Source: Minisyncoccia bacterium
GTDB taxonomy: Bacteria > Patescibacteriota > Minisyncoccia > Phycocordibacterales > DATDWN01
Reading direction: 5' to 3'
Assembly: GCA_049297675.1 (NCBI GenBank)
Contig: JBAQUS010000011.1
Location: 101,184-165,183, forward strand
DNA length: 64,000 bases
Both the position numbers and the translations under genes were made by a program. Within the stretch, counting starts at the first letter, position 1; every line of letters starts with the position of its first letter. Below, one piece after another: positions 10,567-63,741 of this stretch. The notes beneath the pieces are model-generated. The model saw only the letters and a list, made by a program, of their open reading frames with translations. It searched no databases and was not told where the DNA came from.

Positions 10567-10583
10567 TTATTTTCCACTAAAAT

Positions 10584-10859: not shown

Positions 10860-10936
10860 TTGGACAGTATAAAAAAATGTAATGATAATGTCAATACATA
10901 CTTTGTTGTAAGTGAAGGTGTACTTACCTACAATGA

Positions 10937-11409: not shown

Positions 11410-11476
11410 ATACACTAAAAGAAATCCATATAGCTCAATAATTGACTATAAGTTTATCTTAAGATAAACTTATAGT

Positions 11477-20184: not shown

Positions 20185-20187
20185 TAT

Positions 20188-20427
20188 ATGCCTAGACTGA
20201 GGGATATTTCTGGTAAGCAAATGGTCAGAATCTTTCAAACCCTTGGTTTTGTTGTTTTAAGTCAAAAAGGTAGTCATATCAAGATGTCTAGAGTTCAAGG
20301 TGGAAAAGAGCAGACTTTGGTTATTCCAAACCATACTTCAATCTCAAAAGGAACACTTAAAACAATTTATATTCAGGCAGGTAACTACATTCCTGAAAAT
20401 CAGCTCAAAAAACTTTTTTATACATAG
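20188..20427 (+). CDS. hicA: HicA mRNA interferase toxin
   Basis: ISGKQMVRIFQTLGFVVLSQKGSHIKMSR ... LVIPNHTSISKGTLKTIYIQAG matches HicA (GKELIKLLEKxGFxxVRxKGSHxxxxH ... VPxHxxLxxGTLxSILKQAG). Confidence 0.65.
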   Translation: MPRLRDISGKQMVRIFQTLGFVVLSQKGSHIKMSRVQGGKEQTLVIPNHTSISKGTLKTIYIQAGNYIPENQLKKLFYT

Positions 20428-20500
20428 TTTTATTAAGCGAGGGGAATTGCGACTTATTTACATGCTATTTAGGGTATCATTGTATTGGACAAAACTCCTA

Positions 20501-20529
20501 TTGTACAAAAAACAATTATCTGATAGTAT
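20501..20529 (+). promoter_or_regulatory. sigma70-like promoter upstream of rpsJ: TTGTAC, 17 nt, TAGTAT
   Basis: ttgtacaaaaaacaattatctgatagtat, about 25 nt upstream of the rpsJ ATG. Confidence 0.4.
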
Positions 20530-20551
20530 CGTTCTATTGTAATTTATCAAA

Positions 20552-23032: not shown

Positions 23033-23875
23033 ATGAAACGCTACAGACCAACAACAAAATCAAGAAGACAAATGTCAACCATTTCTTTTGGTGATCATGT
23101 TACTGTAAAAGAACCATACAAACCTCTTACTCATGGTTTCAGAAGAAAAATGGGAAGAAATAGTTTCGGTGAGATAACTACTCGTCACAAAGGGGGAGGA
23201 GCAAAAAGACTTTTCCGAGAAATAGATTTTAAATATGACAAGATAAACGTTCCATATACTGTAAAAACAGTTGAATACGATCCAAACAGAACAAGTTTTA
23301 TCAGTTTGGTTCAATATTTAGATGGTGAGAGAAGATATGTTATTTTACCAGCTTCGCTTAAGGTTGGTGATGTTTGCATCACAAAAGAAGATGCAGAACA
23401 AAAACCAGGAAATAGATTGCCACTTAAAAATATTAATGTTGGTACTTTTGTGTATAACGTCGAGCTAAAGCCGGGAAGTGGAGCAAAGATAGCTCGTTCT
23501 GCTGGAAATTATGTGGAAGTTATTGCCAAAGACGCTGGATATGTTGACCTAAAAATGCCGTCATCAGAAGTCAGAAAAGTTCTTGAAACATCTTGGGCGT
23601 CAGTTGGGGAAGTTTCAAATAATGAAAATAGATTAGTAAACTTAGGAAAGGCAGGAAGAAGTAGATGGCTAGGTATAAGACCAACAGTCAGAGGTACCGC
23701 AATGAACCCAGTTGATCACCCATACGGAGGAGGAGAGCAGAGACAGGGAAGAGGAAGAAAGAGAGCTATTTCAGTTTACGGCAAACCAACAGGCAAGGGA
23801 CAGAAATCTAGAACGCCGAAGAAATATTCGAACAAGTGGATAGTTTCTCGCCGAAAAGTTGGCAAGAAGAAGTAA
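23033..23875 (+). CDS. rplB: 50S ribosomal protein L2
   Basis: GRNSFGEITTRHKGGGAKR ... MNPVDHPYGGGE. Confidence 0.95.
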   Translation: MKRYRPTTKSRRQMSTISFGDHVTVKEPYKPLTHGFRRKMGRNSFGEITTRHKGGGAKRLFREIDFKYDKINVPYTVKTVEYDPNRTSFISLVQYLDGERRYVILPASLKVGDVCITKEDAEQKPGNRLPLKNINVGTFVYNVELKPGSGAKIARSAGNYVEVIAKDAGYVDLKMPSSEVRKVLETSWASVGEVSNNENRLVNLGKAGRSRWLGIRPTVRGTAMNPVDHPYGGGEQRQGRGRKRAISVYGKPTGKGQKSRTPKKYSNKWIVSRRKVGKKK

Positions 23876-24346: not shown

Positions 24347-24382
24347 TTGACATTTCATATCCAAAGTATATACTTTGGATAT
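24347..24382. promoter_or_regulatory. 34-bp perfect palindrome overlapping the start of the RelB/DinJ-like antitoxin gene (putative autoregulatory operator)
   Basis: tttcatatccaaagtatatactttggatatgaaa. Confidence 0.5.
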
Positions 24383-24656
24383 GAAAACGATGATAAATAT
24401 AAAAACAGATGTTGAGATAAAAAATCAGGCCAAGAAGGTGGCTAAAGAGCTTGGTATTCCACTCGGGACTGTGCTTAACGCATATTTAAGGGAGTTTATT
24501 CAAACTAAGACGGCTCACTTTTCATTGGTACCAAGAATGACAAAAACCTTGGAGCTACTTTTAGGGTCTGTTGAAAAAGATGTGAGGAAGAGAAAAAATC
24601 TTTCCCAAACTTTTTCTTCTGATAAAGAAGCCATTAGTTATCTAAATAATCTCTAA
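24375..24656 (+). CDS. RelB/DinJ-family antitoxin
   Basis: MINIKTDVEIKNQAKKVAKELGIPLGTVLNAYLREFIQTK matches DinJ/RelB. Confidence 0.6.
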   Translation: MDMKTMINIKTDVEIKNQAKKVAKELGIPLGTVLNAYLREFIQTKTAHFSLVPRMTKTLELLLGSVEKDVRKRKNLSQTFSSDKEAISYLNNL

Positions 24657-24661
24657 GTCTT

Positions 24662-24922
24662 ATGAGAGTCGTTTTTCATAAGAATTTTGAAAAGAAATAC
24701 AAAAGACTAAGGTCCTCCGAAAAAGATAGGTTTAAAAAAATTTTAAATACTTTTATTATTGATCCGTTTTATCCAACTTTGAACAACCACGTATTATCTG
24801 GTAAATACGGAGGTTTTAGAAGTATAAATATCGGTGGCGATTTAAGGGCTATTTACAAAATGTTAGATAATGATATGTACCTCTTTGTGACCATTGATTC
24901 ACACAGCAATTTGTATGAATAG
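24662..24922 (+). CDS. RelE/YafQ-family toxin
   Basis: FEKKYKRLRSSEKDRFKKILNTFIIDPFYPTLNNHVLSGKYGGFRSINIGGDLRAIYKM ... DSHSNLY. Confidence 0.6.
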   Translation: MRVVFHKNFEKKYKRLRSSEKDRFKKILNTFIIDPFYPTLNNHVLSGKYGGFRSINIGGDLRAIYKMLDNDMYLFVTIDSHSNLYE

Positions 24923-24981
24923 TATTTAGGTTTGACTAAGTTAGACAGGATCGAGAAGAGATTTGACAAAAAACCACAGTC

Positions 24982-25833
24982 ATGATATGCTTACGAGCAG
25001 AAATGCAGGAATCTCCTGCAACTGATCCAGCAGATCTCTGGAAAGTACGTTCACAGGGAGAAACTGTCATGACGACTCAAGTTGTCGCAGACGGCATTGC
25101 CAAGAGAAAACCGACGGTAGATGAGATGGAAACACTGCTCTTCAATCGCATTCCGGATCTGATTCGCCGCTACAAAGAGGGCGGTCTTGATCCAGCCGGA
25201 GTGAACACGACCCTGCAGATGGTGGCGGAAGGTTCAATCATCACTGAATCGAAAACAGTGGTGGTCGCTCCACCGAAGCCAAAGCAGGACAAGTTCGAAC
25301 TTCTCACGACGTTCGAAGTCACGGTCCCGGAAGGTTACAACCACGCAACTCACCTCGACACGTTCCGTGCACAGCATCAGAGTAAAGAGAACAAGGAGTT
25401 CTACTTCTACAACGATGCCATCACGGACGCGAACTACGCGGCGAAAGCGACGACCAAGTTGACCGCCGGCCGGAGGTTCTTGGTCAAGGCCTTCGGTATC
25501 AAGAAGACGGTGAGTTCACTCGACTGTCTCGCGAAGGTCAAGGCCGAAAACGCTGTTTTGACCGGGGCGCAGGGTGCATCCCTCGTTTACGAGGAGAGGA
25601 AGAACGAATTGCCGAAAGGCAAGTATTACGTCTCTTTCGATGAAAAGGATGCCCTCTGGCGGGATCCGTACGGCTACCACAGGGTGCCGCTCGTGTGCGC
25701 GTACTCCGATGACGACTTTCGCTTCGATCTCGGCCTCTTCGAGTTTGACTGGGTTTCCGTCTACGTCCTCCTCTGCTTCTGCGACTTGCCCAGTGACTCG
25801 TCTTCGGGCGAGGCACAGATCTTGGACGCTTAG
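24982..25833 (+). CDS. DGR target protein (GC-rich gene; the C-terminal ~45 aa are encoded by the variable repeat)
   Basis: its 3' end (about 25654-25786) matches the template repeat at 26200-26332 except at template adenines; the whole gene is about 55% GC. Confidence 0.6.
   Translation: MICLRAEMQESPATDPADLWKVRSQGETVMTTQVVADGIAKRKPTVDEMETLLFNRIPDLIRRYKEGGLDPAGVNTTLQMVAEGSIITESKTVVVAPPKPKQDKFELLTTFEVTVPEGYNHATHLDTFRAQHQSKENKEFYFYNDAITDANYAAKATTKLTAGRRFLVKAFGIKKTVSSLDCLAKVKAENAVLTGAQGASLVYEERKNELPKGKYYVSFDEKDALWRDPYGYHRVPLVCAYSDDDFRFDLGLFEFDWVSVYVLLCFCDLPSDSSSGEAQILDA
25654..25786 (+). repeat. DGR variable repeat (VR)
   Basis: 133-nt match to the TR; about 18 mismatches, all but one at TR adenines. 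Confidence 0.7.
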
Positions 25834-26199
25834 AACCTTAAACAAGTTCTTTGCTTTCTTTGATCCTTCCGTTTTTTCCAGGCCCCTGCTTTACCGCGGG
25901 GGTCCTTCTTTATATACTTTTCTTTTATTAATGTTTTCTATACAATAATCTTGGATATTCGATCGGGTGAGCGATCACGGTTTCTCACTATCGCTATCTT
26001 GTAAAAGGGATCAATGAGGATTCACCGAGCAATATTTTTTCTTAGCTTTGTGAATGAGAATTGCCTTTTATAAAAAAAACAAAATAAGTCGGTGTGATAG
26101 GTTATCGAGCGTATCAGTTATGACACATAAGGCTCGGAATGAAGTACAGAGGGTGACTGGTGTTGCTCTCGGTGATAATAGACGACCTATCATACATTG

Positions 26200-26332
26200 C
26201 TCTGGCAGGATCCGAACGGCAACCACAGGGTGCCGCTCGTGAACGCGAACTCCGATGACGACTTCAACTTCGATCTCGACAACTTCGAGAATGACTGGAA
26301 TTCCGACTACGTCCTCCTCTGCTTCTGCAACT
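26200..26332 (+). repeat. DGR template repeat (TR)
   Basis: non-coding copy of the VR carrying AAC codons (ALWQDPNGNHRVPLVNANSDDDFNFDLDNFENDWNSDY) where the VR encodes Y/C/R/L/F/V. Confidence 0.7.
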
Positions 26333-26373
26333 CATTTGTTTCTCCTCCATCTTTTAGGTGGGGGAGTTTCTTT

Positions 26374-26733
26374 TTACAATCTCTCCTGAATATCTTTCTT
26401 CCATCCTCCAAGCATTCGTCCGACTTCATCGAGATTGAGAATAAGAACTCCGTATTGTTTGTTATCTATGATTTTGTGTTCCCACGCTATTTGAAGGAAA
26501 AATTTAAGTAAATCATCTTTACCAATTGCTTGTGATACTAAAGAAAGCTTCTCAAATTTATCATATGCAAAACAGGCTCGAAATATTAATTCAAGTAGAG
26601 AAAGAAACAAATCGTCAATTTGTGTCCCGATAGTATTTCGATCAACACGATTAACTTTCTCTAAATAATCATGCCAAACTCTATATCCTTCTTTTGCACG
26701 GACTAAAACGAGGGGCGACGTTATCGGGGGGGT
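26374..26733 (-). CDS. avd: Avd-like accessory variability determinant (four-helix bundle, 23S-IVS protein family); the ORF-track start at 26610 is TTG and homology continues upstream to a stop at about 26734 with no canonical start codon
   Basis: LFLSLLELIFRACFA ... LLKFFLQIAWEHKIIDNKQYGVLILNLDEVGRMLGGWKK fits the Avd/IVS pattern (...VS ... LRFWLR ... IAEVGRILGxW). Confidence 0.5.
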   Translation of the reverse strand, partial: TPPITSPLVLVRAKEGYRVWHDYLEKVNRVDRNTIGTQIDDLFLSLLELIFRACFAYDKFEKLSLVSQAIGKDDLLKFFLQIAWEHKIIDNKQYGVLILNLDEVGRMLGGWKKDIQERL

Positions 26734-26776
26734 TCATCATAGTTTTATTATCTGTGTTGTAATTTTTTATGCTATA

Positions 26777-27769
26777 TTGAATTTCGTGTTCGCTCACAAA
26801 TATACAGACATAATAACCATAGAAAATATTTTGGCAACATGGGGTCATTTTGTTTGTGGTAAGCGCAAGAAAAGAGACGTCAGAACTTTTCAATTACTGC
26901 TTGCTGATAATCTCATTACGCTATACAAAGAACTTACTGAAAAAACATATGAACATGGTAATTATTCAGCTTTTAATATATCAGATCCTAAACCGAGAAA
27001 TATACATAAAGCATTGGTAAGAGATAGAGTCATTCATCATCTAATATATAAGGAGTTGTATTGGTATTTCCATGAAAGACTGATATTTGATTCGTATTCG
27101 TGCAGAAAATATAAGGGGACTCACAAAGCTCTTGATAGGTTTGAACTTTTTGCTGGAAAAGTCTCAAAAAATCATACGAGAACGTGTTATGTATTAAAAT
27201 GCGATATTAAAAAATTCTTTGCTTCAATTGATCAGAAGTCTCTGATGCAGGTTCTTGATCGGCATATTGAAGACGAAGATATTAAATGGTTGATTAATCA
27301 AGTGTTAAAAAGTTTTCATACAACTGATGTGGGTGTAGGTTTGCCACTAGGTAATCTTAGCTCTCAATTACTGGTAAATATCTATATGCATGAGTTCGAT
27401 ATGTATGTGAAACAGGAACTGAGAGTTAAATATTATATCCGTTACGCTGACGATTTTGTTTTTCTATCAGATGATAAAAAATATCTTGAAGATCTTTTAC
27501 CAAAAATAAGGTTGTTTTTACAAGATAAGCTTCATTTATCTCTCCACCCTAACAAAGTGTTTATACAAACGTCCAGTTTAGGAGTGGATTTTCTAGGCTG
27601 GATTCACTTTCCGCACCATCGCATTATTAGAACTACAACAAAACGTAAGATTATTAAAAACACAAAATGGTATCCACGTCATGAAACAGTCAATTCATAT
27701 CGAGGTCTACTGGGACACGGAAATACCCATGAATTACAAGAGAAAATTGGAATTATTAAACATGCGTAA
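26777..27769 (+). CDS. DGR-type reverse transcriptase
   Basis: RT motifs including GLPLGNLSSQLLVNIYM (the SQ signature of DGR RTs, cf. IGNLTSQ) and RYADDFVFL (YxDD box). Confidence 0.8.
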   Translation: MNFVFAHKYTDIITIENILATWGHFVCGKRKKRDVRTFQLLLADNLITLYKELTEKTYEHGNYSAFNISDPKPRNIHKALVRDRVIHHLIYKELYWYFHERLIFDSYSCRKYKGTHKALDRFELFAGKVSKNHTRTCYVLKCDIKKFFASIDQKSLMQVLDRHIEDEDIKWLINQVLKSFHTTDVGVGLPLGNLSSQLLVNIYMHEFDMYVKQELRVKYYIRYADDFVFLSDDKKYLEDLLPKIRLFLQDKLHLSLHPNKVFIQTSSLGVDFLGWIHFPHHRIIRTTTKRKIIKNTKWYPRHETVNSYRGLLGHGNTHELQEKIGIIKHA

Positions 27770-27959: not shown

Positions 27960-28298
27960 ATGACAAGATCATCCAAAAAAGGTCCATACGTAGACGAGAG
28001 AGTCCTCAAAAAGATTGAGGGTAGAAAGCCTCTGGAAACTGGAGTCATAAAGACATGGTCAAGAGCCTGTGTTATCTCTCCTGAGATGATCGGTTTTACT
28101 TTCGGAGTTCATAACGGTAAAACACATTTGGACGTGCTAGTATCAGAGGATATGATTGGTCACAGACTTGGAGAATTCTCACCTACAAAGAAGTTTATAA
28201 AACACGGAGGTAAGATGCAGAAAGAGCTTGAGATGAAGAAGAAGGAATCTGAAATTGCGGCAGCATCAGCGGCAAAGGCGGAGCCAGCCAAGAAGTAA
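27960..28298 (+). CDS. rpsS: 30S ribosomal protein S19 (with a K/A/E-rich C-terminal tail)
   Basis: [16 protein letters not shown] ... [29 protein letters not shown]. Confidence 0.9.
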
Positions 28299-50696: not shown

Positions 50697-51220
50697 TTTA
50701 TAACTCTATGTCAAGGGGTAGTTTGGGCGCCGAAAGGGTGGCTAAGATGTTGAGACTTTTATGAAGAAAGGGCAGTTGGTTAGGAATGATTTTAGTTTCG
50801 TTAATACAAGAATCACTTCATTGCTCAATAGTTTTTTATTAGACGAGGTGTCTTTTACTGAAAGCGTGTCCTGAGCCATGTTTTAAGTATTTTTCAAATT
50901 TTAGTGCCTTATTTTTATTTGGAAATGCGCAAAACCAGATTAATGAGAATGGAAGTTTAGTTTTTGAGTATCTAGACTCCCCGTTATTGTGTTCTTTTAG
51001 TCTATTCTTGATGTTTTCTGTGCTTCCGAAATATAGACTACCATCCTTCTGACTTTTTTAGAATGTAAACATAGTGCATATAAAGAATATATATCCTGCG
51101 TCGCTTGATTACAAGCTATGCAGGATCCACTGCTTCGCTAACAAAAAACCTCACAGGTTGTGTGAAGTTTCTTGTGCTAAAGGTATTTAGTGCCTGCACT
51201 GCGTAGCTTTAGCGAAGCAG

Positions 51221-51617
51221 TGGAGATGCCGATAGTTGAAATCGGGTCCATAAAGTGAATCGAGACAGATCTACAATACTTAGTTTACTTAAAGTTTTAA
51301 TCCGTGTTGCTTAGAGTAAACCAAACACAACACGGACGATCTTCTATTTTCTGGTTTCACTCGAAGAAAGTGAAACTATAACCTTAGTTTATATCAATCA
51401 TCTCCTCCTTAAAGGTTCAAGAGGAGAGACCGTCGTTTAGGTGTTGAGTTTAAGCAACTGCGTAAGCGAAAGCAAAATCGTTTGCTCCAAAATATGGAGA
51501 AGCGGATGCTTTTTTAGATAAGTTTTTTACACTTAATCTTTCCAGACTTTTTAAGAGTTTCTGGAGCTCTGTATTGCCTGAATCAATATCGTCTTTATGT
51601 CAAAACCTGTCATCCCC
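51221..51617 (-). ncRNA. ssrA: tmRNA (ssrA), about 397 nt, predicted tag peptide (A)ANDFAFAYAVA
   Basis: minus-strand 5' end GGGGATGACAGGTTTTGACA resembles GGGGCTGATTCTGGATTCGAC; the 3' end CCGAT-TTCAACT-ATCGG-CATCTCC-A forms a T-arm and a 7-bp acceptor stem with the 5' end, including a G3:U70 wobble pair; internal ORF GCA AAC GAT TTT GCT TTC GCT TAC GCA GTT GCT TAA at about 51450-51485; smpB lies immediately upstream. Confidence 0.6.
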
Positions 51618-51729: not shown

Positions 51730-52173
51730 CTATTTACCTTTCAAGTCTCTCTCGATATCACGTTCTGTGTCTCTCTTCTTGATCGACTCTCTTTTGTCGA
51801 ATTTTTTCTTGCCCCTAGCGACTGCGATATCGAGCTTTATTAGACCCCCCTTATTATACACCGAAATTGGGACAATTGTCAATCCTTTAGCGTTTTCAGT
51901 GCCAGATAGAGCCATAATCTCCTTTTTGCTAAGCAAAAGTCGTCGGTTTCTGTACGGATCATAGTCTTTTGGAGTGTTTCCAGCTTGATATGGCGGGATG
52001 AACATGCCAATTAAATAGGCTTCCGCACCACGAATGGTTACATAAGTACCCTCTAAAGACCCCTGACTTTTCCTTAATGACTTTACCTCAAACCCAAAAA
52101 GCTCTATACCGGCAGTATATTTTTCCAAAATCTCGTAATCGAACCCTGCTTTTCTGTTTGTGATAAGAGACAT
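51730..52173 (-). CDS. smpB: SsrA-binding protein SmpB
   Basis: ITNRKAGFDYEILEKYTAGIELFGFEVKSLR ... GLTIVPISVYNKGGLIKLDIAVARGKK. Confidence 0.9.
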   Translation of the reverse strand: MSLITNRKAGFDYEILEKYTAGIELFGFEVKSLRKSQGSLEGTYVTIRGAEAYLIGMFIPPYQAGNTPKDYDPYRNRRLLLSKKEIMALSGTENAKGLTIVPISVYNKGGLIKLDIAVARGKKKFDKRESIKKRDTERDIERDLKGK

Positions 52174-52727: not shown

Positions 52728-54659
52728 ATGCCTGAAAATCAGGAAAAAAAGAAAATAATAATAAAAAGGTCGGGAAAGGGGGGCAAAGACCCTGAAGATA
52801 GCTCTATACTAAACTACGTAATATACGTCATTGTTATTTTTATTGTGCTTTCTTCAATTTACTCTCTTGTTTCTGATTCTGGTTCAAATAAAGTCGAAGA
52901 AATTTCCATATCACAGCTTTCAGCAGATGTTCAAGCAGGTTTAGTTGATTCAATAACAGTAAACGGCGATAGCTTAGATCTTTTATATAAGAAAGGTGAA
53001 AAAAAGATTTCCAAAAAAGAGGAGTCTGTGGCACTTTCTCAAACTCTAGTAAATTATGGAGTAACAAAAGAGGAGATTGGTTCTGTTAAAGTAGATATTC
53101 AAAACCAGAAAGGTTTTAGTTTTTGGTTTATAAATCTTTCACCAATTATTTTTCCCATTCTTTTCATTGTTATCTTCATTTGGTTTCTGACCAGACAAGT
53201 CAAAGGTGCTGGCATTCAAGCTCTAACTTTCGGGCAGTCAAAAGCCAGGATGATAGATCCAAACGACAAGTCGCAGAGAGTGACTTTCAAAGACGTGGCT
53301 GGATGTAAGGAAGCAAAAGAGGAGCTTTCAGAAATAGTTGATTTTTTGAAAAATCCTCAAAAATTTCTAGATATTGGGGCTAGGATTCCAAAGGGTATTT
53401 TGCTTATGGGGGCACCTGGCACAGGAAAAACCATGCTTGCTAGAGCTGTCAGTGGTGAGGCTCGAGTTGCTTTTTTCTCGATTTCAGGTTCGGAGTTTGT
53501 GGAAATGTTTGTCGGTGTTGGAGCTTCGCGCGTGAGGGACTTGTTTATGATGGCCAAGAAAAACTCTCCATCAATTATTTTTGTAGACGAGATAGATGCA
53601 GTGGGTAGAGTGCGTGGAGCCGGTCTTGGTGGCGGTAATGACGAGAGGGAACAAACACTCAACCAAATTCTAGTTGAGATGGATGGCTTCGAGCCAAATG
53701 AAAAAGTGATAGTCATGGCCGCAACAAACAGGCCTGACGTTTTGGACCCAGCACTTCTTCGACCGGGGAGATTTGATAGGCGAGTCACTCTTGATTTACC
53801 AGACAGAAAAGATAGGGAGGAAATACTGAAAGTTCATAGTACAAAAAAACCTTTTGCAGAGGATGTAAACTTAACTGTCATTGCCGAGAGGACGCCAGGG
53901 TTTTCTGGTGCTGATCTATACTCTCTTATGAACGAGGGAGCCATCTTAGCTGCTCGTGAAAATCGTACAAAAGTTTCTCAATTTGATCTTATTCGCTCGA
54001 TCGAGAAAGTCATGCTCGGTCCAGAGAGACGAAGTCATCTACTTTCAAAGAAAGAAAAGGAAATCACAGCATATCATGAGGCGGGTCACGCTGTTTTGGC
54101 CTCCATACTTCCTTACGCTGACCCAGTACACAAGATCTCCATTATTTCACGTGGCCGAGCGGCAGGTTATGTTTTCAAGCTCGCACTAGAAGAGAGAAAG
54201 TTACAATCCAAAAAAGAATTTCTTGACGATATTGCAGTTTCTCTCGGTGGATATATTACAGAGAAAATGCTTTTCGATGACCTAACAACTGGTCCATCAA
54301 ATGACTTACAAGTTTCAACAGCTTTGGCACGGGATATGGTTACCAAATATGGGATGTCGGATAGTATTGGTCCTGTAGCTCTTGAAGGCCACGAAGGTAA
54401 AGCACTTTTTGGTAGGGGGGTTGATGAAAAGGAATTCTCGGAGAGAGTGTCAGCGGACATTGACTCTGAAGTTTCCAGAATAATGAAAGAAGCTTTAGAG
54501 AAGGCAAGAGTAGTAATAACAGAGAATAGAAAGCTACTTGATGCGATTGCGGTGAGACTTATAGAGGTTGAAACAATAGAGAGAGCAGAGTTCGAGTCGA
54601 TTTTAGTTGCAAATGGTGTCACTCCAAAAAAGAAGCTTGATATTGAACATCAGGGATAG
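52728..54659 (+). CDS. ftsH: ATP-dependent zinc metalloprotease FtsH
   Basis: TM helices then GAPGTGKT Walker A, DEIDAVGR, second region of homology, HEAGHAV zinc site. Confidence 0.95.
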
Positions 54660-55006: not shown

Positions 55007-55264
55007 CTATCTCCATCTCGGTCTCTTGCCTTTTGCGTAGCAGATAATAATAAGAAAAATTGTGTTGATGATAAAAGGCAGGGATAAATTTATTAGAGTA
55101 TCACTTGCTGAATGAGAAAATTTATCTATGTTTAAGAAGTTGAGAGTTATTGCTACTATGTAAAGCAAAAGAACAAACCACCCCTCCCAACTTGTTGGTG
55201 TCCATCCCCATCCATATTTTTTAGATTCAAACCACAGTTTATTATCTTTGTTTTTATTTTCCAT
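55007..55264 (-). CDS. hypothetical small membrane protein
   Basis: ORF track; two TM helices. Confidence 0.3.
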   Translation of the reverse strand: MENKNKDNKLWFESKKYGWGWTPTSWEGWFVLLLYIVAITLNFLNIDKFSHSASDTLINLSLPFIINTIFLIIICYAKGKRPRWR

Positions 55265-55294
55265 AAAATGTGTTAGTTTATTATATATGATTTT

Positions 55295-55368
55295 GCGCGT
55301 ATAGCTCAGTTGGTTAGAGCATCGAGCTTATACCTCGAGGGTCCCACGTTCGAGTCGTGGTACGCGCA
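55295..55368 (+). tRNA. tRNA-Ile with anticodon UAU (reads AUA directly)
   Basis: gcgcgta / tagctcagttggttagagc / a / tcgag-cTTATAc-ctcga / gggtc / ccacg-ttcgagt-cgtgg / tacgcgc-a gives a clean cloverleaf with U33 and anticodon TAT; CCA not encoded. Confidence 0.8.
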
Positions 55369-55373
55369 CATCT

Positions 55374-57530
55374 TTATTCAAAATGGATTTTGTGATTCTG
55401 AGATTCTAATCGTTCTTTGAGGAGTGGATAGTTCGTTAGCTCCGGGTCTTCCTCGACTAGTTTTTGTGCTTCGGTTCGTGAAGCCTCAACCATTTTAATG
55501 TTTTTTATAGCTTCCATGGCTAAATCCGAAATGCCCCATTGTTTTCTACCATAAAGTTCGCCGGCTCCTCTCTGAGCTAGGTCAAATTCTGAGAGCTCGA
55601 AGCCATTTTTAGCAGTAGTAAGAGCCTTAAGTCTATCTCGAGTTTTCTGTCCTGAACTTTCAGGAAAAACATAACAATAGGCTTGGTGGTTTGAGCGTAT
55701 GACTCTTCCACGGAGCTGATGAAGCTGGGACAGTCCGAACCTTTCAGCACCCTCAATAATTATCATTGTAGCATTTGGTACGTTTACACCCACTTCCACC
55801 ACAGAAGTTGCCACCAAAATTTTTGTTACCCCTTTAGAGAATTTTTCCATAACCTTCTCTTTTTCCAAGGGTGTCATCTTTGAATGCAAAATATCAACGG
55901 TAAATTCGGAAAAAACTTCCTTCTTTAGTCTCTCAGCTTCGAGTTTTACTGATTTGGCAATAACCGACAGCTCCTTTGTTGGATCTGGCTCTTCTATTCT
56001 CGGACAAATAACATAAAGTTGTCTTCCATTATTTAATTCTTTTCTAATTTCGTTGTAACAATTATTTCTTTCGCTTGGCAAGACAATTTTAGTAATAATA
56101 GGAAGTCTGCCATGTGGCATTTCATCGAGTAAAGTCAAATCAAGATCTCCGTAGATAGTAAGTGCTAGTGTTCGTGGGATGGGTGTTGCCGTCATGGATA
56201 ATAGGTGGGGAGTCAATCCATCTTTTATCATTAGCTTTTGTCTCTGAAGTGTTCCAAACCTGTGTTGTTCATCAATGACCACATATGCTAAATGTTTAAA
56301 TGTTACAGATTTTTGGATTAAAGCATGTGTGCCAATAAGGATTGGCACTTCGCCGTTCGCTACCCATTTGAGGAGTTGGGTTCTAGAGATTTTCGTTGGC
56401 TTTGTAGGATCACTTTTGCTTGGAAATATTTTACATTCACTTCCGGTAATTAACCCTATTTTAATAGGTAGATGCTCAAAATATCTTATAAAATTTTCAT
56501 AGTGTTGTTTTGCTAAAATTTCTGTTGGACACATATAAGCGGTTTGCAAATTCCCAAAGGTGTCACCTTTGGGAAAGGTTTGAGTGACAGCGTATATGGT
56601 AGTGGCAGCTACTGCTGTTTTGCCAGAACCCACATCTCCCTCGAGAAGTCGAGACATGGGATAGCCTCTTTTGAAATCTAGAGAAATAGAATTTATAGCT
56701 TTCATCTGGGAATCAGTAGCTTTGAAAGGAAAACGGAGGATGAATTCTCTAATGTCTTTTTGGCTTGTTGTAATATTGAAACTACTTTTTTCTCTCCAAA
56801 ATCTTTTCTCCCTTTGTTTTTCTAGTTGTATAAAGAAGATTTCCTCAAAGGCAAATCTCTTCCTAGCGGACTCGGCATCAGACTTTTTTCTCGGAGCATG
56901 GATCCAAATAAGGGCAGTTTTCAGTCCGGGTAGGTTATATTTTTTAAGAATCTCCTCCGGTATTGGGTCCTCCAAAGTGTCAAGGGTGCCCCTTGACATG
57001 ATTTTCTGGAGGGCGTGGTAGAACCAGTTTGAGGTAATACCTCTGCTTTCTGGATAAACGGGGTAGAGAGAATGATTTTCACCGCCTTCTCCGAAAAGGG
57101 ATTTTCCAACTAAGACAGGAGTATTGTTTGCAACTTCTATTTTAGGGTTGCTTAGATATTGCACACCCTTTCTTTCTGAAACTTTCCCCTCTACTCTAAC
57201 TGACTGTCCATCGTGAATCATCTTGGCAATGTAAGGCTGGTTAAACCATACAAGCTTGATTTTTCCGGTTTCATCCTCGAGCATACCATCTGACATAGGG
57301 ATTTTTTTGTAAAAAGCCTTACTGGTTTTAAGCCCTGATATTTTTCCAAAAATGACTGCATTCTGACCAGTGTTCAAATTCAGAACACTGACTATTTCAG
57401 CAGTGTCCCCATACCTGACAGGGAAGTGATAGAGTAAGTCGCTAATAGTAGCGATTCCCATTTTCTCCAAAGCTTTCTTTTGTGAATTTGTCAAACGTAT
57501 CTCCTCTATCAGTATGGAGTTAAGTTTCAT
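55374..57530 (-). CDS. recG: ATP-dependent DNA helicase RecG
   Basis: wedge domain then helicase motifs GDVGSGKT, DEQHRFG, arginine finger region. Confidence 0.9.
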   Translation of the reverse strand: MKLNSILIEEIRLTNSQKKALEKMGIATISDLLYHFPVRYGDTAEIVSVLNLNTGQNAVIFGKISGLKTSKAFYKKIPMSDGMLEDETGKIKLVWFNQPYIAKMIHDGQSVRVEGKVSERKGVQYLSNPKIEVANNTPVLVGKSLFGEGGENHSLYPVYPESRGITSNWFYHALQKIMSRGTLDTLEDPIPEEILKKYNLPGLKTALIWIHAPRKKSDAESARKRFAFEEIFFIQLEKQREKRFWREKSSFNITTSQKDIREFILRFPFKATDSQMKAINSISLDFKRGYPMSRLLEGDVGSGKTAVAATTIYAVTQTFPKGDTFGNLQTAYMCPTEILAKQHYENFIRYFEHLPIKIGLITGSECKIFPSKSDPTKPTKISRTQLLKWVANGEVPILIGTHALIQKSVTFKHLAYVVIDEQHRFGTLQRQKLMIKDGLTPHLLSMTATPIPRTLALTIYGDLDLTLLDEMPHGRLPIITKIVLPSERNNCYNEIRKELNNGRQLYVICPRIEEPDPTKELSVIAKSVKLEAERLKKEVFSEFTVDILHSKMTPLEKEKVMEKFSKGVTKILVATSVVEVGVNVPNATMIIIEGAERFGLSQLHQLRGRVIRSNHQAYCYVFPESSGQKTRDRLKALTTAKNGFELSEFDLAQRGAGELYGRKQWGISDLAMEAIKNIKMVEASRTEAQKLVEEDPELTNYPLLKERLESQNHKIHFE

Positions 57531-58262: not shown

Positions 58263-59429
58263 ATGAATAGAAAGATACTAATGAGTTTGGGTGCCATAGT
58301 TTTTGTTGTGGCACTTTCAATCACAGCAACAGGTGCATTCTTCTCTGATAGTGAAACATCTACAGGGAACACTTTAACAGCAGGTTCAATCGACTTAAAG
58401 ATTGACAACACAAGTTATGTTACAAGTACTTCTACAGGACAGCTTATAGCAAGCCCTTGGACTACTTGGACAATAAGGGATTTGACAGTCGAGAAGTTTT
58501 TTGACTTTATCGATCTAAAACCAGGAGATATGGGAGAGGATACTATTTCTCTTCACGTTGACAACAACGATTCATATCTCTGTGCCGATATTACTCTGAC
58601 TTCAAACAATGAAAACACATTAGTTGAGCCAGAAATGGAGGATGGCGACGTTTCATCAACAACTGGCGAACTTGCTCAGCAAGTAAACTTCCTATGGTGG
58701 CCAGACGATGGAGATAACGTTCTAGAAGTTGGAGAGACAGTTCTTCCTGGAGGACCTCTAGGAGCTGCTGGAGTTGGAGCAACTACAACAGTCACTCTAG
58801 CTGACTCAGTCTTTAACATTTGGACAGGAGTAGGAGGTCCAGTTCCAGGTGCTTCGACAAGATACATCGGAAAAGCATGGTGCTTTGGAGCAATCACACC
58901 TGCACCACTTGCTCAGGATAACGCCACAACTAGCGGTCCTCTAGTAAGAGGCCCTGGTCTAACTTGTGACGGATCCCAAGCAGACAATACTGCCCAAACA
59001 GATAGTTTAACAGCAGACATAGCTTTCAGAGCTGTTCAGTCAAGAAATAACGGTGATTTCCAGTGTGTGGTTAGACAAACACCACCACCTCCACCACCAG
59101 CACCAGCAACAGTTACAATTGACAAGGAAGTTTCATTTACAAATATAGCTGTTGTGGGGGTTGATGTAAGCGACTTTGAACTTCACTTATTTGGTCCAGG
59201 TGGCGATCATATCTTAACTGATAATGTTCCATTCCCAGGACTTACTCCAGGAGTTTACACAGTATCTGAGATTTATTCAGGTGTTCCAGCTAATGCAACA
59301 TCTACAGCTGTATTCGGTGGAAGTTGCGTAGAAATAGGAACTACTGATACAGCAACGATGAACGTGGTCTCTGGTGTTAACCCAACGTGTACGATCACAA
59401 ACTCTGTTTCAACAACAACACCAAATTAG
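58263..59429 (+). CDS. TasA/camelysin (peptidase M73)-like secreted protein with a SipW-cognate-type signal peptide, paralogue 1
   Basis: signal peptide then GAFFSDSETSTGNTLTAGSIDLKIDN, DLKPGDMGEDTISLHVDNNDSYLCADITLT, YIGKAWCFG, ADIAFRAVQSRN; compare TasA NLKPGDKLTKDFQF and QFSFEATQWNG. Confidence 0.6.
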   Translation: MNRKILMSLGAIVFVVALSITATGAFFSDSETSTGNTLTAGSIDLKIDNTSYVTSTSTGQLIASPWTTWTIRDLTVEKFFDFIDLKPGDMGEDTISLHVDNNDSYLCADITLTSNNENTLVEPEMEDGDVSSTTGELAQQVNFLWWPDDGDNVLEVGETVLPGGPLGAAGVGATTTVTLADSVFNIWTGVGGPVPGASTRYIGKAWCFGAITPAPLAQDNATTSGPLVRGPGLTCDGSQADNTAQTDSLTADIAFRAVQSRNNGDFQCVVRQTPPPPPPAPATVTIDKEVSFTNIAVVGVDVSDFELHLFGPGGDHILTDNVPFPGLTPGVYTVSEIYSGVPANATSTAVFGGSCVEIGTTDTATMNVVSGVNPTCTITNSVSTTTPN

Positions 59430-59598
59430 TAGATAATTAATAAGGATACTTTAACTCATTAGTATCTTTGTAGGTGGCAGTTCATAACAAAAAAGTAGTT
59501 GTGGACTGCAACCGAACAGAGATACGAGATGAAATACAAGGGAGTTAAAAGTGTGAAAGTAGAAATTGTGAAAGTAAGAAATTAAAGATTAAAGATTA

Positions 59599-60897
59599 AT
59601 GAAAAAAATTTTCCTATCGATCTCAAGTATCATATTCGCTGGAGCAATCCTTGCCGGAGGGACGGGGGCTTTTTTCAACAGCCAAAACACTTCAACTGGC
59701 AATACTTTTGCTACAGGCATTATTGATTTGAAGATTGATAATGAAAGTTATGTTACGGACGAAAACGGAAAACTGGTTTTCAGTCCTAGCACATCTTGGG
59801 CACTATCGACTTTGATAGGGAAACTTTTCTTTAATTTTCCAGACATAAAACCGGGAGACATTGGAGAAGACACCATATCGCTTCATGTAAGCAACAACAA
59901 CGCTTGGGCATGTATGAATATAACTCTGACAGGTACGCCAGAGAATGGTCAGAGCGAACCAGAAGCTCTAGTGGACACAACTACTGGAGTGAATGACGGT
60001 GAGCTTCAATACGAGCTCTATTTTGCATTCTGGGCAGATGATGGAGACAATGTCTACGAGTCCAACGAAAAAATCTTTAAGCAAGGACTTGCTAAAGATA
60101 TTTTCAATGGTGAGAGCTGGCCACTTTCTGATTCCAAATCAAACATTTGGAGTCCTCCACCTTGGCCAATCCAAGCTGGAGCCACAAAGTATATTGCAAA
60201 GGCCTGGTGTTTCGGTGTTATGGGTAAGACTCCTGTAACACAGGATGGTCTTGGTAAAACTGGCTCAAACGGACCACTAGCGAGGGGTACTGGTTTTACT
60301 TGCGATGGAGAGCCACTAGGAAATATTTTGCAGTCAGATGGTATTACTGCGGATGTTTCTTTCACGGCAGTTCAGTCACGTAATTATCCAGAGTTTGTTT
60401 GCGGACAAGGAGAGCCAGCACCAATACCACAAACTTCGACACTTTTCTTCGACAACTTCGAAAGCTATGAGGTTAACACCAATGTTGATCCATTAAATCT
60501 AAAGTGGGTACAAGTTGGTGGTGTGCAAGCAATATGGGGTCTGGATGGGAAAGTAGCTGATTTAGATACTGGTGATGGATCTGAAACCATAACTTCGAAA
60601 AGTTTGGATCTTTCGATTTATCACGACATCACTCTAAAATACAGCAGAAAAAGTGACGATACGGCTGGCACTGTAGATCCACAAACACTAAAGGTGGAGT
60701 ATAGCGTAGACGGCGGTGGAAATTGGACTACGCTTGAAACCATAAACGGGGAGACAGTGTGGACAACAAAGACGTTCAGTCTTTCTCCATCCGCAAATAA
60801 CAAGTCGGATGTCAAAATACGATTTGTTTTGACTGGTACAAATAGCACAAATCATGTTTACATAGACAACGTTTCTCTGACAGGAGTGACACCATAA
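59599..60897 (+). CDS. TasA/camelysin-like secreted protein, paralogue 2, with an additional C-terminal beta-rich domain
   Basis: shares the N-terminal module (GTGAFFNSQNTSTGNTFATGIIDLKIDNESY ... ISLHVSNNNAWACMNITLT ... ADVSFTAVQSRN); the C-terminal domain ending YIDNVSLTGVTP is shared with paralogue 3. Confidence 0.6.
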   Translation: MKKIFLSISSIIFAGAILAGGTGAFFNSQNTSTGNTFATGIIDLKIDNESYVTDENGKLVFSPSTSWALSTLIGKLFFNFPDIKPGDIGEDTISLHVSNNNAWACMNITLTGTPENGQSEPEALVDTTTGVNDGELQYELYFAFWADDGDNVYESNEKIFKQGLAKDIFNGESWPLSDSKSNIWSPPPWPIQAGATKYIAKAWCFGVMGKTPVTQDGLGKTGSNGPLARGTGFTCDGEPLGNILQSDGITADVSFTAVQSRNYPEFVCGQGEPAPIPQTSTLFFDNFESYEVNTNVDPLNLKWVQVGGVQAIWGLDGKVADLDTGDGSETITSKSLDLSIYHDITLKYSRKSDDTAGTVDPQTLKVEYSVDGGGNWTTLETINGETVWTTKTFSLSPSANNKSDVKIRFVLTGTNSTNHVYIDNVSLTGVTP

Positions 60898-60975
60898 AAA
60901 ATAAAGAAAGACCGTATACAAAATTAACAGAATTATTGTGACAGTAACGAAGGATCGTGATCTGTCTCTAACGGG

Positions 60976-63741
60976 ATGAAAAAAATACTACTTAGCACTG
61001 CGATTGTAATGTTTGTGGGTGGGGCGCTCGCCATGGGAGGGACAGGGGCTTTTTTCTCTGACAGAGAATTGTCAGGGGGGAATATTTTCACTGCCGGAGC
61101 CATTGACCTCAAGATAGACAACGAGAGTTATTACAACGGCAAAGTTTCCACCACAACCAGCTGGACACTCTCAGATCTGACGATTGAAAAGTTTTTTAAT
61201 TTTCTAGATCTTAAACCAGATGATTATGGAGAAGACACAGTCAGTATTCATGTTGATACGAACGACGCCTACCTTTGTGCCAATATCACTCTGACATCGG
61301 ATGATGATAACGGAATAAACGAACCGGAATCAGCTTCAGATCAAACAGATGGACCTGGAGCGGGTGAACTTGGAGACAATGTCAACTTTATGTGGTGGGC
61401 AGACGATGGTGATAATGTTCTAGAAGACGGTGAGAATGTCATCTCACAAGGTCCTATAGGAGATTTGACTCTAAACGTTCCTTACTATTTCACTTTGGCT
61501 GACTCTGACCAGAACATTTGGACTGGCTCGGGTGGTCCTGTACCAGGCGAGAAGACTTTGTATATTGGAAAGGCATGGTGTTTCGGTAGTATTTCACCAA
61601 GCCCTCTTTCACAAAGTTCAACTGGTTCTAGGTCTACTACTACGCCAGCAGGTGATGGAAACAACAATCTAGTTTTAGGTGAACCTGAGGATGGTGGTTA
61701 CTTGTGTGACGGAACAGGCTTAAATAACTCGACTCAAACAGACAGTTTAACGGCCGATGTGTCCTTTAGTGCTATTCAATCAAGAAATAACAGGGATTTC
61801 CAGTGTCAGGGCCCAAGTGAACCAGAGGTAACATCTCTAACACTCATAAAACAGGTTATAGGTATTCCAGATGTGGGACCAAACGAATCAGCATCTAGCT
61901 GGACACTTTCTGCAAGTGGCGGTCCAACACCATTCTCTGGTCCAGGTCCATCTGTTAACTCACCTGTAAATTTTCAACCAGGAGCATATACACTTTCTGA
62001 AAATGTAGTGCCCGGATATACTTCTGGTAATTGGAATTGCGATGCGGGAGTTCTAGTTGGTGATGAGTTAACTCTTGCAGAGGGTCAATCGGCAACTTGT
62101 ACAATTATAAATACAGAGGAGGCTATTGCGTGCAATGCCAGAATTGATCTTATGATAGTTATGGATAACTCATCTTCTATAAATGATACAGAGGAAGCTA
62201 TGATGAAATCTGGTGCGGTAGCTTTCGTCAATGCTCTGACAATAACTACTCCTGGTAATCATGGTGGTCTTACAAGTTTTGATGACGGAGCAGTTTTGAG
62301 TCAAGCATTAACCGATAACCAAGCTACTTTGCTAGCTGCAGTCAATGCACCGTTTGGTAGCGGACTGACAAATCTTGAGGCTGGAATACTGGGAGCTACA
62401 ACAGAGCTCGGTGGACCAAATGACAGGACACCAGACACAGACTCAGATTTTCCTGATGTTATGGTAGTCATAACTGACGGTAATCCTACAGCTTCAAATG
62501 GACCAGATACAGACGAGATAGATGCCTTTAATGCGGCAACGGCGGCAAAATCTGCAGGTATTGAGGTTTATGTAGTTGGTGTTGGAGCCGATGTCAATGC
62601 TGGTTATCTAGCTACCATTGCCAGTCCCGGTAAATATTATTCAGCCGAAAATTTTTCAGATCTTGAATCGGCACTTCTGACAATTGCTAATTGCGGACAA
62701 GTCCCAACTGGAACACTTACTGTAACTAAAGTTGTAGTTTCTGGGAATGATCCTACCCCAGCTTCCATAGGAGATTTTCCACTTTTTGTTGATGGTCTTT
62801 CAGTTGTATCAGGAGTTTCTACAACCACAATTGCAGGATCTCATGTCGTAAGTGAGACAAACAACGATCCAGACTACACTTCTGTTATAGGAGGACCTGA
62901 TTGTGATGCAAATGGTAATGTCACAGTCCCAATTGGTGGAGTAGCAAGTTGCACCATTACAAATACATGGAATGAACCGCATGGAACACTAACAGTAAAC
63001 AAAGTTAGAGTTGGTGGTTTTGGACTTCAAGCAACTTCAACATTTCAGTTTGTTGTAAATGGTGGAGCTCCAACAAATTTTGAATCAGACGGTTCAAATC
63101 AAATCTCTGTGCCAGTCGGTCCATACACTGTTGCAGAGGTTGCAACGACAAGTTACAGTATTCTTTATAGTGCTGGTTGTAGTGGAGTAATGAGTCCTGG
63201 TGGAAATGAGACTTGTACAATTACAAATACGGCAGAAATTGTTAATTTTGCCCTAGCAAATGGAAATTTCGGTACAGGAGCTACAACCACTGACATAAAT
63301 AGTTGGGATGAGGAAGGAACTGACAGCGACGCAACAACACAATCTATTCCAGCTGGAAGCGGTCAAAATATTGGAAGTCCTGATGGAGACAAATTTGCTA
63401 TAATCGGAAATGACGAATGGATTTGTAAAGCGGTTTCAACTTCCGGTTTCAGTTCACTCTCCGTTAGTTACTATTGGAAAGGAGATCCTGATGCAGAAGA
63501 CGGCGAAAGTGGTGTCTTGGAGCATAGATCAAATGGAACCTGTAACTCTGGTGGCGGATGGACAACGGTAGCCACACACGAGTTGGATGATGCTAACAAT
63601 AACCTCGACGAGGGATGGAGTTCTCTTCAAGGAGTAGGTTTGCCAAACGACATAACCCTATTTAGGTTTAGGAATGGGTCAAATAGCAGTGGAGAAGACT
63701 TTAGGGTTGATGGTGTCAGTCTGACCGGAATACCAAATTAA
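60976..63741 (+). CDS. TasA/camelysin-like secreted protein, paralogue 3 (921 aa), with an internal von Willebrand factor A domain and the shared C-terminal domain
   Basis: the N-terminal module as above; vWA MIDAS DLMIVMDNSSSIND ... MVVITDGNPT ... VYVVGVG; the C-terminus ends FRVDGVSLTGIPN. Confidence 0.6.
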   Translation: MKKILLSTAIVMFVGGALAMGGTGAFFSDRELSGGNIFTAGAIDLKIDNESYYNGKVSTTTSWTLSDLTIEKFFNFLDLKPDDYGEDTVSIHVDTNDAYLCANITLTSDDDNGINEPESASDQTDGPGAGELGDNVNFMWWADDGDNVLEDGENVISQGPIGDLTLNVPYYFTLADSDQNIWTGSGGPVPGEKTLYIGKAWCFGSISPSPLSQSSTGSRSTTTPAGDGNNNLVLGEPEDGGYLCDGTGLNNSTQTDSLTADVSFSAIQSRNNRDFQCQGPSEPEVTSLTLIKQVIGIPDVGPNESASSWTLSASGGPTPFSGPGPSVNSPVNFQPGAYTLSENVVPGYTSGNWNCDAGVLVGDELTLAEGQSATCTIINTEEAIACNARIDLMIVMDNSSSINDTEEAMMKSGAVAFVNALTITTPGNHGGLTSFDDGAVLSQALTDNQATLLAAVNAPFGSGLTNLEAGILGATTELGGPNDRTPDTDSDFPDVMVVITDGNPTASNGPDTDEIDAFNAATAAKSAGIEVYVVGVGADVNAGYLATIASPGKYYSAENFSDLESALLTIANCGQVPTGTLTVTKVVVSGNDPTPASIGDFPLFVDGLSVVSGVSTTTIAGSHVVSETNNDPDYTSVIGGPDCDANGNVTVPIGGVASCTITNTWNEPHGTLTVNKVRVGGFGLQATSTFQFVVNGGAPTNFESDGSNQISVPVGPYTVAEVATTSYSILYSAGCSGVMSPGGNETCTITNTAEIVNFALANGNFGTGATTTDINSWDEEGTDSDATTQSIPAGSGQNIGSPDGDKFAIIGNDEWICKAVSTSGFSSLSVSYYWKGDPDAEDGESGVLEHRSNGTCNSGGGWTTVATHELDDANNNLDEGWSSLQGVGLPNDITLFRFRNGSNSSGEDFRVDGVSLTGIPN

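Follow-up and report, generated by a model that had tools for sequence, protein, structure and literature searches.

A conserved tRNA-Ile gene with an encoded UAU anticodon near ftsH in Minisyncoccia and related Patescibacteria

Nowhere else in the bacterial code than at AUA and AUG does the choice between two amino acids hang on one wobble base. The textbook bacterial solution is lysidine, formed by TilS, an enzyme that has been pursued as an antibacterial target and that also serves as a GTDB bac120 marker. To our knowledge, only a handful of cultured bacteria have been documented to live without TilS.

A different arrangement, in which the UAU anticodon is encoded in the gene itself, is known among bacteria in Mycoplasma mobile and a few other Mollicutes, in Bifidobacterium, in Neorickettsia, and in Lactobacillus plantarum and L. 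casei (PMC3575796, PMC4013482). Nine species without tilS (PMC3575796) and 19 species with TAT genes (PMC4013482) are on record, and the preliminary description of the locus reported here was right to call an encoded tRNA-Ile(UAU) uncommon in bacteria. Metagenomes have yielded 371 unique TAT tDNAs of unknown origin (PMC3575796, PMC4013482). A mechanistic precedent is that of M. mobile: the IleRS of Escherichia coli rejects U34, which is accepted by an enzyme with arginine at the Trp905 position or by a type-2 IleRS, and U34 is unmodified, the ribosome itself discriminating against AUG with the help of competition from tRNA-Met (PMC3575796).

The locus considered here lies in a 64-kb window (the whole stretch of DNA that was analysed) from a member of the Minisyncoccia, the class formerly called Parcubacteria or Paceibacteria, inside the ultra-small bacteria of the Patescibacteria or CPR. 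The window bears CPR hallmarks, with ~38% GC, small genes and L30 missing between S5 and L15. We consider it very likely that this is a working gene, transcribed on its own, that encodes a minor tRNA-Ile with a UAU anticodon, and that this tRNA is the standard AUA decoder of its lineage.

The tRNA-Ile(UAU) gene, its surroundings and its conservation

The gene comprises 74 nt at positions 55295–55368 of the plus strand. Read 5' to 3', it consists of the acceptor strand GCGCGTA, the dinucleotide TA, the D arm GCTC-AGTTGGTTA-GAGC, a single A, the anticodon arm TCGAG-CTTATAC-CTCGA, the variable loop GGGTC, the T arm CCACG-TTCGAGT-CGTGG, the acceptor strand TACGCGC and the discriminator A73 at 55368. 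The anticodon TAT (U34 A35 U36; 55329–55331, plus strand) sits within the loop C32-U33-U34-A35-U36-A37-C38 (CTTATAC; 55327–55333, plus strand). There is no intron, and the 3' CCA is absent from the gene, the next bases being CATC. ARAGORN calls a tRNA-Ile with anticodon tat at 55295–55369, and Rfam RF00005 covers 55295–55368 over positions 1–71 of its 71-position model with 70.3 bits (E = 2.6e-13; gathering score 29) and posterior probabilities that are all maximal. A canonical full-cloverleaf tRNA with an encoded UAU anticodon is thereby confirmed. The coordinates and the cTTATAc loop given in the preliminary description agree with the sequence and with both programs, whose calls hold, and no different anticodon or isotype was assigned.

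This tRNA and one tmRNA are the only RNA genes that ARAGORN and Rfam detect in the 64-kb window, and no other tRNA was found in the window and ~10 kb on each side of it. The local gene order begins on the minus strand with the tmRNA (51218–51617; Rfam RF00023, 112 bits; also called by ARAGORN) and smpB (51730–52173; Pfam SmpB), continues on the plus strand with ftsH (52728–54659; 643 aa; Pfam FtsH_ext, AAA, AAA_lid_3 and Peptidase_M41), and after two small ORFs reaches the tRNA, which starts 636 nt beyond the end of ftsH. The first of these ORFs is on the plus strand, with its start at 54712 or 54688 and its end at 54933 in the ORF list. The second (55007–55264, minus strand), an 85-aa hypothetical ORF recognized from the ORF list and its translation and also annotated by NCBI, has no Pfam match; it is divergent from the tRNA and, being hydrophobic, probably encodes a membrane protein. 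Downstream, recG (55374–57530, minus strand; 718 aa; Pfam RecG_wedge, DEAD, Helicase_C and RecG_dom3_C) is convergent with the tRNA, its stop lying 5 nt past the tRNA 3' end. The same RecG is also encoded on assembly GCA_049296815.1 (contig JBAQTD010000011.1), which carries the NCBI label 'Minisyncoccia bacterium'. The small hypothetical genes and recG had been correctly named as neighbours; ftsH, the conserved synteny partner, had gone unmentioned. Nearby, the window holds mobile elements, namely GIY-YIG ORFs, toxin-antitoxin pairs and a DGR.

We compared the 80 species-representative genomes with the best-matching FtsH proteins, whose ftsH loci add up to 1.26 Mb. All 80 are Patescibacteria of the Zambryski-, Taylor- and Kaiserbacteria type. 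ARAGORN finds a tRNA-Ile(tat) near ftsH in 67 of them, and in every one of the 13 other loci the contig terminates no more than 2030 nt after ftsH, so that the gene is missing from no assessable species (67/67). The distance from the end of ftsH to the tRNA has a median of 621 nt (range 16–4788), and the tRNA shares the strand of ftsH in 37 species and lies opposite in 30. Most of the related loci also have a tmRNA upstream of ftsH, and tmRNA-smpB-ftsH-tRNA-Ile(UAU) is a conserved block.

The tRNA itself is conserved as well. Its anticodon loop reads CTTATAC in 65 of 68 genes and CTTATAT in the other three. When 61 distinct sequences were aligned to the cloverleaf, 99.7% of stem cells were paired and compensatory double changes occurred in 16 of the 21 stem pairs; the covariation score was 0.70, against 0.17 for shuffles (none of 500 reached 0.70) and at most 0.14 for slid controls. 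Nor does this alignment show any variation at U8-A14, at U33-A37, in the T loop or at A73. The tRNA-Ile(UAU) gene is therefore a clade-wide, syntenic and strongly conserved trait, and not a peculiarity of one genome.

Transcription appears to be independent of the neighbouring genes. Inspection by eye of the AT-rich stretch immediately 5' of the tRNA (55270–55294, plus strand; …TTAGTTTATTATATATGATTTT) revealed -10-like TATATA/TATGAT sequences, and this stretch might possibly serve the gene as a promoter, in which case the leader would be very short, although a promoter/terminator consensus scan of the window copy gave no full sigma-70 match and no convincing signal on the tRNA strand. Most relatives have a -10-like box (TATAAT/TATATT/TAGTAT-like) about 6–15 nt upstream of the tRNA. 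Together with the free flips in orientation, these boxes suggest that the gene is a self-contained transcription unit.

AUA decoding and the lysidine system

AUA is a frequent codon in this lineage. Of the 1205 Ile codons in 58 ORFs of the window, 467 (38.8%) are AUA, which amounts to 29.2 per 1000 codons; within the cluster of ribosomal-protein and elongation-factor genes, 41% of Ile codons are AUA. In 66 related loci the AUA frequency has a median of 18.7 per 1000 (range 7.1–56.4) and tracks GC content (r = -0.73). Thus AUA is not rare, as it might have been had the preliminary description misjudged the gene. The corresponding value in E. coli is 4.9 per 1000 and in Borrelia, which has TilS, 39 per 1000 (PMC12514573); high AUA use alone does not separate TilS-less from TilS-bearing AT-rich bacteria.

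The neighbourhood of ftsH is the classical position of tilS, and many bacteria have tilS-hpt upstream of ftsH. Here, the tmRNA-smpB block occupies that place. The sequence of the source genome that was examined amounts to ~84 kb, namely the 64-kb window and ~10 kb on each side, the upstream flank being taken from the sibling assembly GCA_049296155.1. The flanks were reached through identical protein records, of which the first ORF of the window had none. The six frames of the window contain no SGGxDS PP-loop motif. TilS was found neither in the window and its ~10-kb flanks (SGGxDS, phmmer with E. coli TilS, precomputed Pfam PF01171) nor in the 1.26 Mb of ftsH neighbourhoods of the 80 relatives (SGGxDS, phmmer, Pfam). 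The sole SGGxDS match in the latter (L054) belongs to oligopeptidase F and was rejected. A CAT-anticodon tRNA is likewise absent from the ~84 kb and from the 105 tRNAs of the related loci. We also found no IleRS in the ~84 kb or the 1.26 Mb by phmmer with the E. coli enzyme or by Pfam, a weak phmmer match (L076) being rejected as a minimal MetRS of 479 aa, and no mnmA, mnmE or mnmG in the window and its ~10-kb flanks, which represent less than 10% of a genome.

As ~84 kb covers only part of the genome, and MAGs are incomplete in any case, what the source genome lacks has to be inferred. We think it likely that it has neither tilS nor tRNA-Ile2(CAU), in which case tRNA-Ile(UAU) would be its sole reader of AUA. 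The preliminary description had proposed that the gene marks loss of the tilS pathway in a reduced genome. That proposal is supported in so far as this is a CPR genome with common AUA codons and neither tilS nor tRNA(CAU) appears in the ~84 kb or the 1.26 Mb; loss in the source MAG itself is deduced rather than observed.

Complete genomes offer a broader view. Table S2 of PMC13011429 lists tRNA counts for 95 complete Patescibacteria genomes per amino acid and without anticodons, and the main text of that paper does not mention UAU, AUA, TilS or lysidine. Ile and CAT tRNA counts sum to 4 in the 95 complete genomes (PMC13011429 Table S2). ARAGORN labels all CAT anticodons 'Met', and a genome with Ile = 2 and Met = 2 would accordingly hold GAU, a second Ile anticodon, fMet and Met, and one with Ile = 1 and Met = 3 would hold GAU, fMet, Met and Ile2-CAU. 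At least two Ile with at most two CAT tRNAs thus leave no Ile2 substrate for TilS. This pattern is found in 14 of 20 Paceibacteria, all 12 Microgenomatia, all seven Dojkabacteria, the single genomes of Doudnabacteria, UBA1384 and WWE3, two of four ABY1 and two of five Gracilibacteria (PMC13011429 Table S2). The lysidine-type set of one Ile and three CAT tRNAs occurs in five of the 20 Paceibacteria, in three of the five Gracilibacteria and in Kazan-3B-28, and all seven JAEDAM01 have 1 + 3 or more; the remaining Paceibacteria genome and the other two ABY1 have two Ile and three CAT, and all 36 Saccharimonadia have at least three CAT (PMC13011429 Table S2). GCA_016699085.1 and GCA_017134395.1 exemplify the 2 + 2 pattern, GCA_016699385.1 and GCA_016699975.1 the 1 + 3 pattern. 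Paceibacteria are therefore not uniform, a quarter of their complete genomes having a lysidine-type tRNA set. The patterns are complementary, as predicted if tRNA-Ile(UAU) replaced tRNA-Ile2(CAU); the second Ile tRNA of the table is read here as TAT by inference, backed by the 67 species described above. On balance we lean towards the view that UAU without TilS and lysidine is the rule in much of the CPR (most Paceibacteria, Microgenomatia, Dojkabacteria, WWE3 and part of ABY1 and Gracilibacteria), with Saccharimonadia and JAEDAM01 retaining lysidine.

It could be argued that tilS and tRNA-Ile2(CAU) are encoded elsewhere in the source genome, and that the UAU tRNA is a supplementary reader of AUA. 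Only ~84 kb of that genome is in view, L. plantarum and L. casei are reported to carry both tRNA-Ile(TAT) and tilS (PMC3575796), the five Paceibacteria genomes with three CAT tRNAs and the one with two Ile and three CAT point to lysidine-type tRNAs within the class, and AUA is also used heavily in TilS-bearing bacteria such as Borrelia. Yet retention by all 67 assessable species under strong purifying selection exceeds what would be expected of a dispensable duplicate, the complementary counts (2 + 2 or 1 + 3) indicate that the two systems almost never coexist in the CPR, and there is no tilS in any ftsH neighbourhood of the 80 relatives. Redundancy is therefore unlikely, and we retain the reading of tRNA-Ile(UAU) as the standard AUA decoder.

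Isoleucine identity, origin and mode of decoding

Because the isotype that ARAGORN reports depends solely on the anticodon, we looked for independent marks of isoleucine identity. C3-G70 is typical of Met and fMet tRNAs and G3 or A3 with C70 or U70 of tRNA-Ile; tRNA-Ile(CAT) in addition often has C4-G69 and C5-G68 (Silva et al. 2006, PMC1635315). Among the 61 distinct sequences, pair 3-70 is G-C in 46 and A-U in 15, and never C-G; pair 4-69 is C-G in 58 and U-A in three; C5-G68 is present in 37, and U12-A23 and A73 in all. The window gene carries G3-C70 and C4-G69, and with A73 and U12-A23 its body is of the Ile type, which together with the agreement of ARAGORN and Rfam upholds the original assignment as a tRNA-Ile with an encoded UAU anticodon.

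The match to E. coli is not complete. Nureki et al. (1994) reportedly defined the identity set of the E. coli IleRS as A73, U12-A23, C29-G41 and A38, a set that is not universal. Where the E. coli set has A38, 58 of the 61 sequences have C and three have U, and pair 29-41 varies within the family, being G-C in the window gene as against C29-G41. With these two elements departing from the E. coli set, the case for charging by IleRS rests on evidence at the level of the codon. In an alignment of 81 FtsH orthologues, where a column has AUA in some sequence, the remaining sequences show Ile at 64.6%, Val at 14.9%, Leu at 9.3% and Met at 3.4%, a profile indistinguishable from that of AUU columns (63.2% Ile, 2.1% Met); such profiles tell the meaning of the codon and not which tRNA reads it. 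The likeness of the two profiles argues that AUA means isoleucine and has not been reassigned.

The same evidence bears on the idea that the UAU tRNA has another identity, being charged with Met for example, or that it decodes beyond AUA. The isotype call is based on the anticodon, C38 and pair 29-41 deviate from the E. coli set, and AUA means Met in many mitochondria; nonetheless, the AUA and AUU columns are alike in both Ile and Met content, the acceptor stem is of the Ile type and never has C3-G70, and MetRS depends on C34, which is absent here (cited in PMC12514573), making this idea very improbable. That the gene has decayed to a pseudogene, resembles a tRNA by chance or was recently brought in by a phage or mobile element is hardly credible, for although tRNAs are common cargo of phages and islands and the GIY-YIG ORFs, toxin-antitoxin pairs and DGR lie nearby, the 70-bit Rfam match to a perfect cloverleaf, the recurrence in synteny in 67 species and the compensatory substitutions in the stems speak of vertical inheritance under selection and rule out chance, decay and recent transfer.

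As to where the gene came from, metagenomes were scanned for tRNAs that share its D-arm and C38 loop but have CAT as anticodon, which gave at least 120 matches, 74 of them analysed. By the acceptor-stem rule, 56 of the 74 CAT tRNAs are Met-type and 17 Ile2-type. Nine metagenome loci, from Omnitrophota or other non-CPR bacteria, show a tRNA(CAU)-tilS(-ftsH) arrangement, and all nine tilS-linked tRNAs have C3-G70, which makes them elongator tRNA-Met. Conversion in situ of an ftsH-linked tRNA-Ile2/tilS module from CAU to UAU was accordingly rejected, the tRNAs being Met-type in nine of nine cases and the hosts non-CPR. The 17 Ile2-type CAT genes show that this type can have a C38 loop, and an origin by change of C34 to T would be compatible with them. 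A protein search with Omnitrophota TilS returned Omnitrophota TilS only, among the 120 matches listed, and so carries no information on the CPR.

If tRNA-Ile(UAU) is the AUA decoder, its U34 would pair in Watson-Crick fashion with the third-position A of AUA, and direct reading of this kind makes the conversion of cytidine to lysidine by TilS unnecessary. By analogy with characterized systems, the IleRS would have to accept U34, either as a type-1 enzyme changed at the position of Trp905 (E. coli) or Arg865 (M. mobile) or as a type-2 enzyme, and A37 would be expected to bear t6A. Misreading of AUG might be limited by competition from tRNA-Met combined with an unmodified U34 on an adapted ribosome, as in the M. 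mobile model, or by a restrictive modification of U34. We speculate that the near-invariant context of C32 and a pyrimidine at 38 may matter for recognition by IleRS or for tuning in the A site.

Significance and comparison with known systems

We found no description of UAU, TilS or lysidine in CPR, Patescibacteria or Parcubacteria in the open-access literature, and an earlier description elsewhere is possible. The kind of gene is itself known; its breadth in the Paceibacteria clade and several CPR classes, of which it is probably typical, appears to be undescribed. Given the M. mobile precedent and the genome reduction of the CPR, such a gene is unsurprising in principle, and what deserves note is the apparent CPR-wide scale. 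If this is correct, a considerable share of bacterial diversity would lack TilS, an enzyme held to be near-universal and essential, and in the lineages concerned IleRS and the decoding centre would have to be co-adapted. These lineages would offer many independent natural experiments in the handling of U34 by IleRS and the ribosome and in the avoidance of Ile-for-Met errors, and would give a taxonomic home to part of the orphan metagenomic tDNA-Ile(TAT) seen in 2013. The absence of TilS in CPR genomes would then reflect biology and not incompleteness, which affects annotation as well as the scoring of markers and completeness. For the locus itself the practical consequence is modest: 55295–55368 should be annotated as tRNA-Ile(UAU), the AUA decoder.

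The closest counterpart is that of M. mobile (Taniguchi et al. 2013, PMC3575796), which likewise combines an encoded UAU anticodon, AUA as a frequent isoleucine codon, A37 after U36 (a t6A context) and a reduced genome. There, tilS and tRNA-Ile(CAU) are absent, an absence that is predicted here, and the Arg865-type change in IleRS, the unmodified U34 and the ribosomal discrimination against AUG have been demonstrated, whereas in the present system comparable features may be expected by analogy. M. mobile belongs to the Mollicutes, where one or a few species are involved; the CPR family comprises 67 species, probably of several classes, and differs from M. mobile in its C38 loop and in C1-G72, present in about half of its members. 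Bifidobacterium and Neorickettsia also have tRNA-Ile(TAT) without tilS, and independent losses of lysidine have been inferred for them, with recognition of UAU credited to a horizontally acquired IleRS2 of eukaryote/archaeal type (PMC3575796); ileS, like the rRNA operon, lies outside the sequence examined here. L. plantarum and L. casei share the encoded tRNA-Ile(TAT), but TilS is present in both and their decoders are redundant (PMC3575796), a routine coexistence against which the counts of 2 Ile + 2 CAT or 1 Ile + 3 CAT in complete CPR genomes argue.

The canonical pair of tRNA-Ile2(CAU) and TilS resembles the present tRNA in its AUA-specific decoding of isoleucine and in its Ile-type acceptor (G3 or A3, C4-G69 and frequent C5-G68). 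It needs lysidine, whereas here T34 is written in the gene and IleRS must accept U34; and lysidine excludes AUG, whereas U34 permits U-G wobble with that codon. Eukaryotic cytoplasmic tRNA-Ile(UAU) is similar in that an encoded UAU is dedicated to AUA, but its gene has an intron and the tRNA carries Pus1-dependent pseudouridines at 34 and 36, while the gene described here is intronless. Finally, a suppressor of tilS deletion in Bacillus subtilis, in which G34 of tRNA-Ile1 was changed to U, sustains AUA decoding without TilS (PMC3919564). That suppressor arose in the laboratory from tRNA-Ile1(GAU) (PMC3919564); the gene of the Patescibacteria is natural, ancient and conserved.

A diversity-generating retroelement in the S10 operon

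The S10 ribosomal-protein operon contains a diversity-generating retroelement (DGR; window 24375-27769), which lies between rplB (23033-23875) and rpsS (27960-28298). Its variable repeat (25654-25786) is situated at the 3' end of an ORF of 283 aa (24982-25833), and the template repeat (26200-26332) shares 86% identity with it, the mismatches falling nearly all at template adenines. A bAvd gene on the reverse strand (~26374-26610) and an RVT_1 reverse transcriptase on the forward strand (26777-27769) complete the region, together with a YafQ/ParE-type toxin pair (24375-24922). DGRs are common in CPR bacteria; the placement of one within a core ribosomal operon is unusual.

Toxin-antitoxin modules, surface proteins and the tmRNA tag

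Elsewhere in the window, core translation genes are interspersed with several toxin-antitoxin modules and small GIY-YIG ORFs. HicA is located between tuf and rpsJ (19942-20542), YafQ/ParE and PhdYeFM-like pairs occur at 10291-11728, and the GIY-YIG ORFs are scattered (~50.9 kb and 57.97-58.16 kb). We also observed three or four tandem paralogues of secreted proteins (window 58263-63741, forward strand, and fetched locus L086, 12785-14149). These have in common an N-terminal signal and a TasA/camelysin-like motif (…TGAFFSD…TGNTFTAG.IDLKIDN…), and SpaA-like and VWA domains are present in addition in the largest, of 921 aa. They are probably cell-surface or pilus-associated proteins. Among the 58 window ORFs of 100 aa or more, TGA is near-absent as a stop codon (TAA 39, TAG 18, TGA 1), and no recoding of TGA was apparent.

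ARAGORN placed a tmRNA on the reverse strand (window 51218-51617) and predicted a tag peptide with Val as its first residue (VKNLSKKASASPYFGANDFAFAYAVA). A Val-first tag was predicted in another fetched locus, L044, too, and most relatives have an Ala-first tag (AKN…/ANK…). The Val-first window tag could reflect a genuine change of resume codon or a wrongly set frame.

tRNA genes in relatives and metagenomes

Six related genomes possess a class-II tRNA with the anticodon ACU (A34), at L004:14396-14485, L008:18328-18415, L012:10729-10816, L020:17366-17455, L053:14871-14960 and L076:17231-17320, for which the 64-kb window has no equivalent. All six have a Ser-type body, that is, a long variable arm and G73, with the anticodon loop UUACUAA, and an ordinary tRNA-Ser(GCU) is found nearby. 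Bacterial A34 tRNAs beyond Arg(ACG) are very rare, with a count of three for Ser (PMC4013482).

Nine unrelated metagenome contigs repeat the gene order elongator tRNA-Met(CAU, C3-G70) - tilS - (hpt) - ftsH, as in an Omnitrophota locus (L148:2007-4827) and two bacterial metagenome loci (L129:3701-6929 and L125:936-4783). A tRNA that TilS must not modify is thus encoded directly upstream of tilS.

tRNA-Ile across the CPR

Counts of Ile and CAT tRNAs in 95 complete Patescibacteria genomes (PMC13011429 Table S2) separate two complementary groups of CPR classes, a split on which PMC13011429 itself does not remark. One group, with two Ile and two CAT tRNAs, comprises Microgenomatia, Dojkabacteria, WWE3 and the majority of Paceibacteria; the other, with one Ile and three CAT tRNAs, comprises Saccharimonadia, JAEDAM01 and some of the Gracilibacteria and Paceibacteria.

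In our alignment of 61 distinct tRNA-Ile(UAU) sequences, C1-G72 replaces the usual G1-C72 in 28; the window gene has G1-C72 (55295/55367). Position 38 is a pyrimidine in every member (C in 58, U in 3), whereas E. coli tRNA-Ile has A38.
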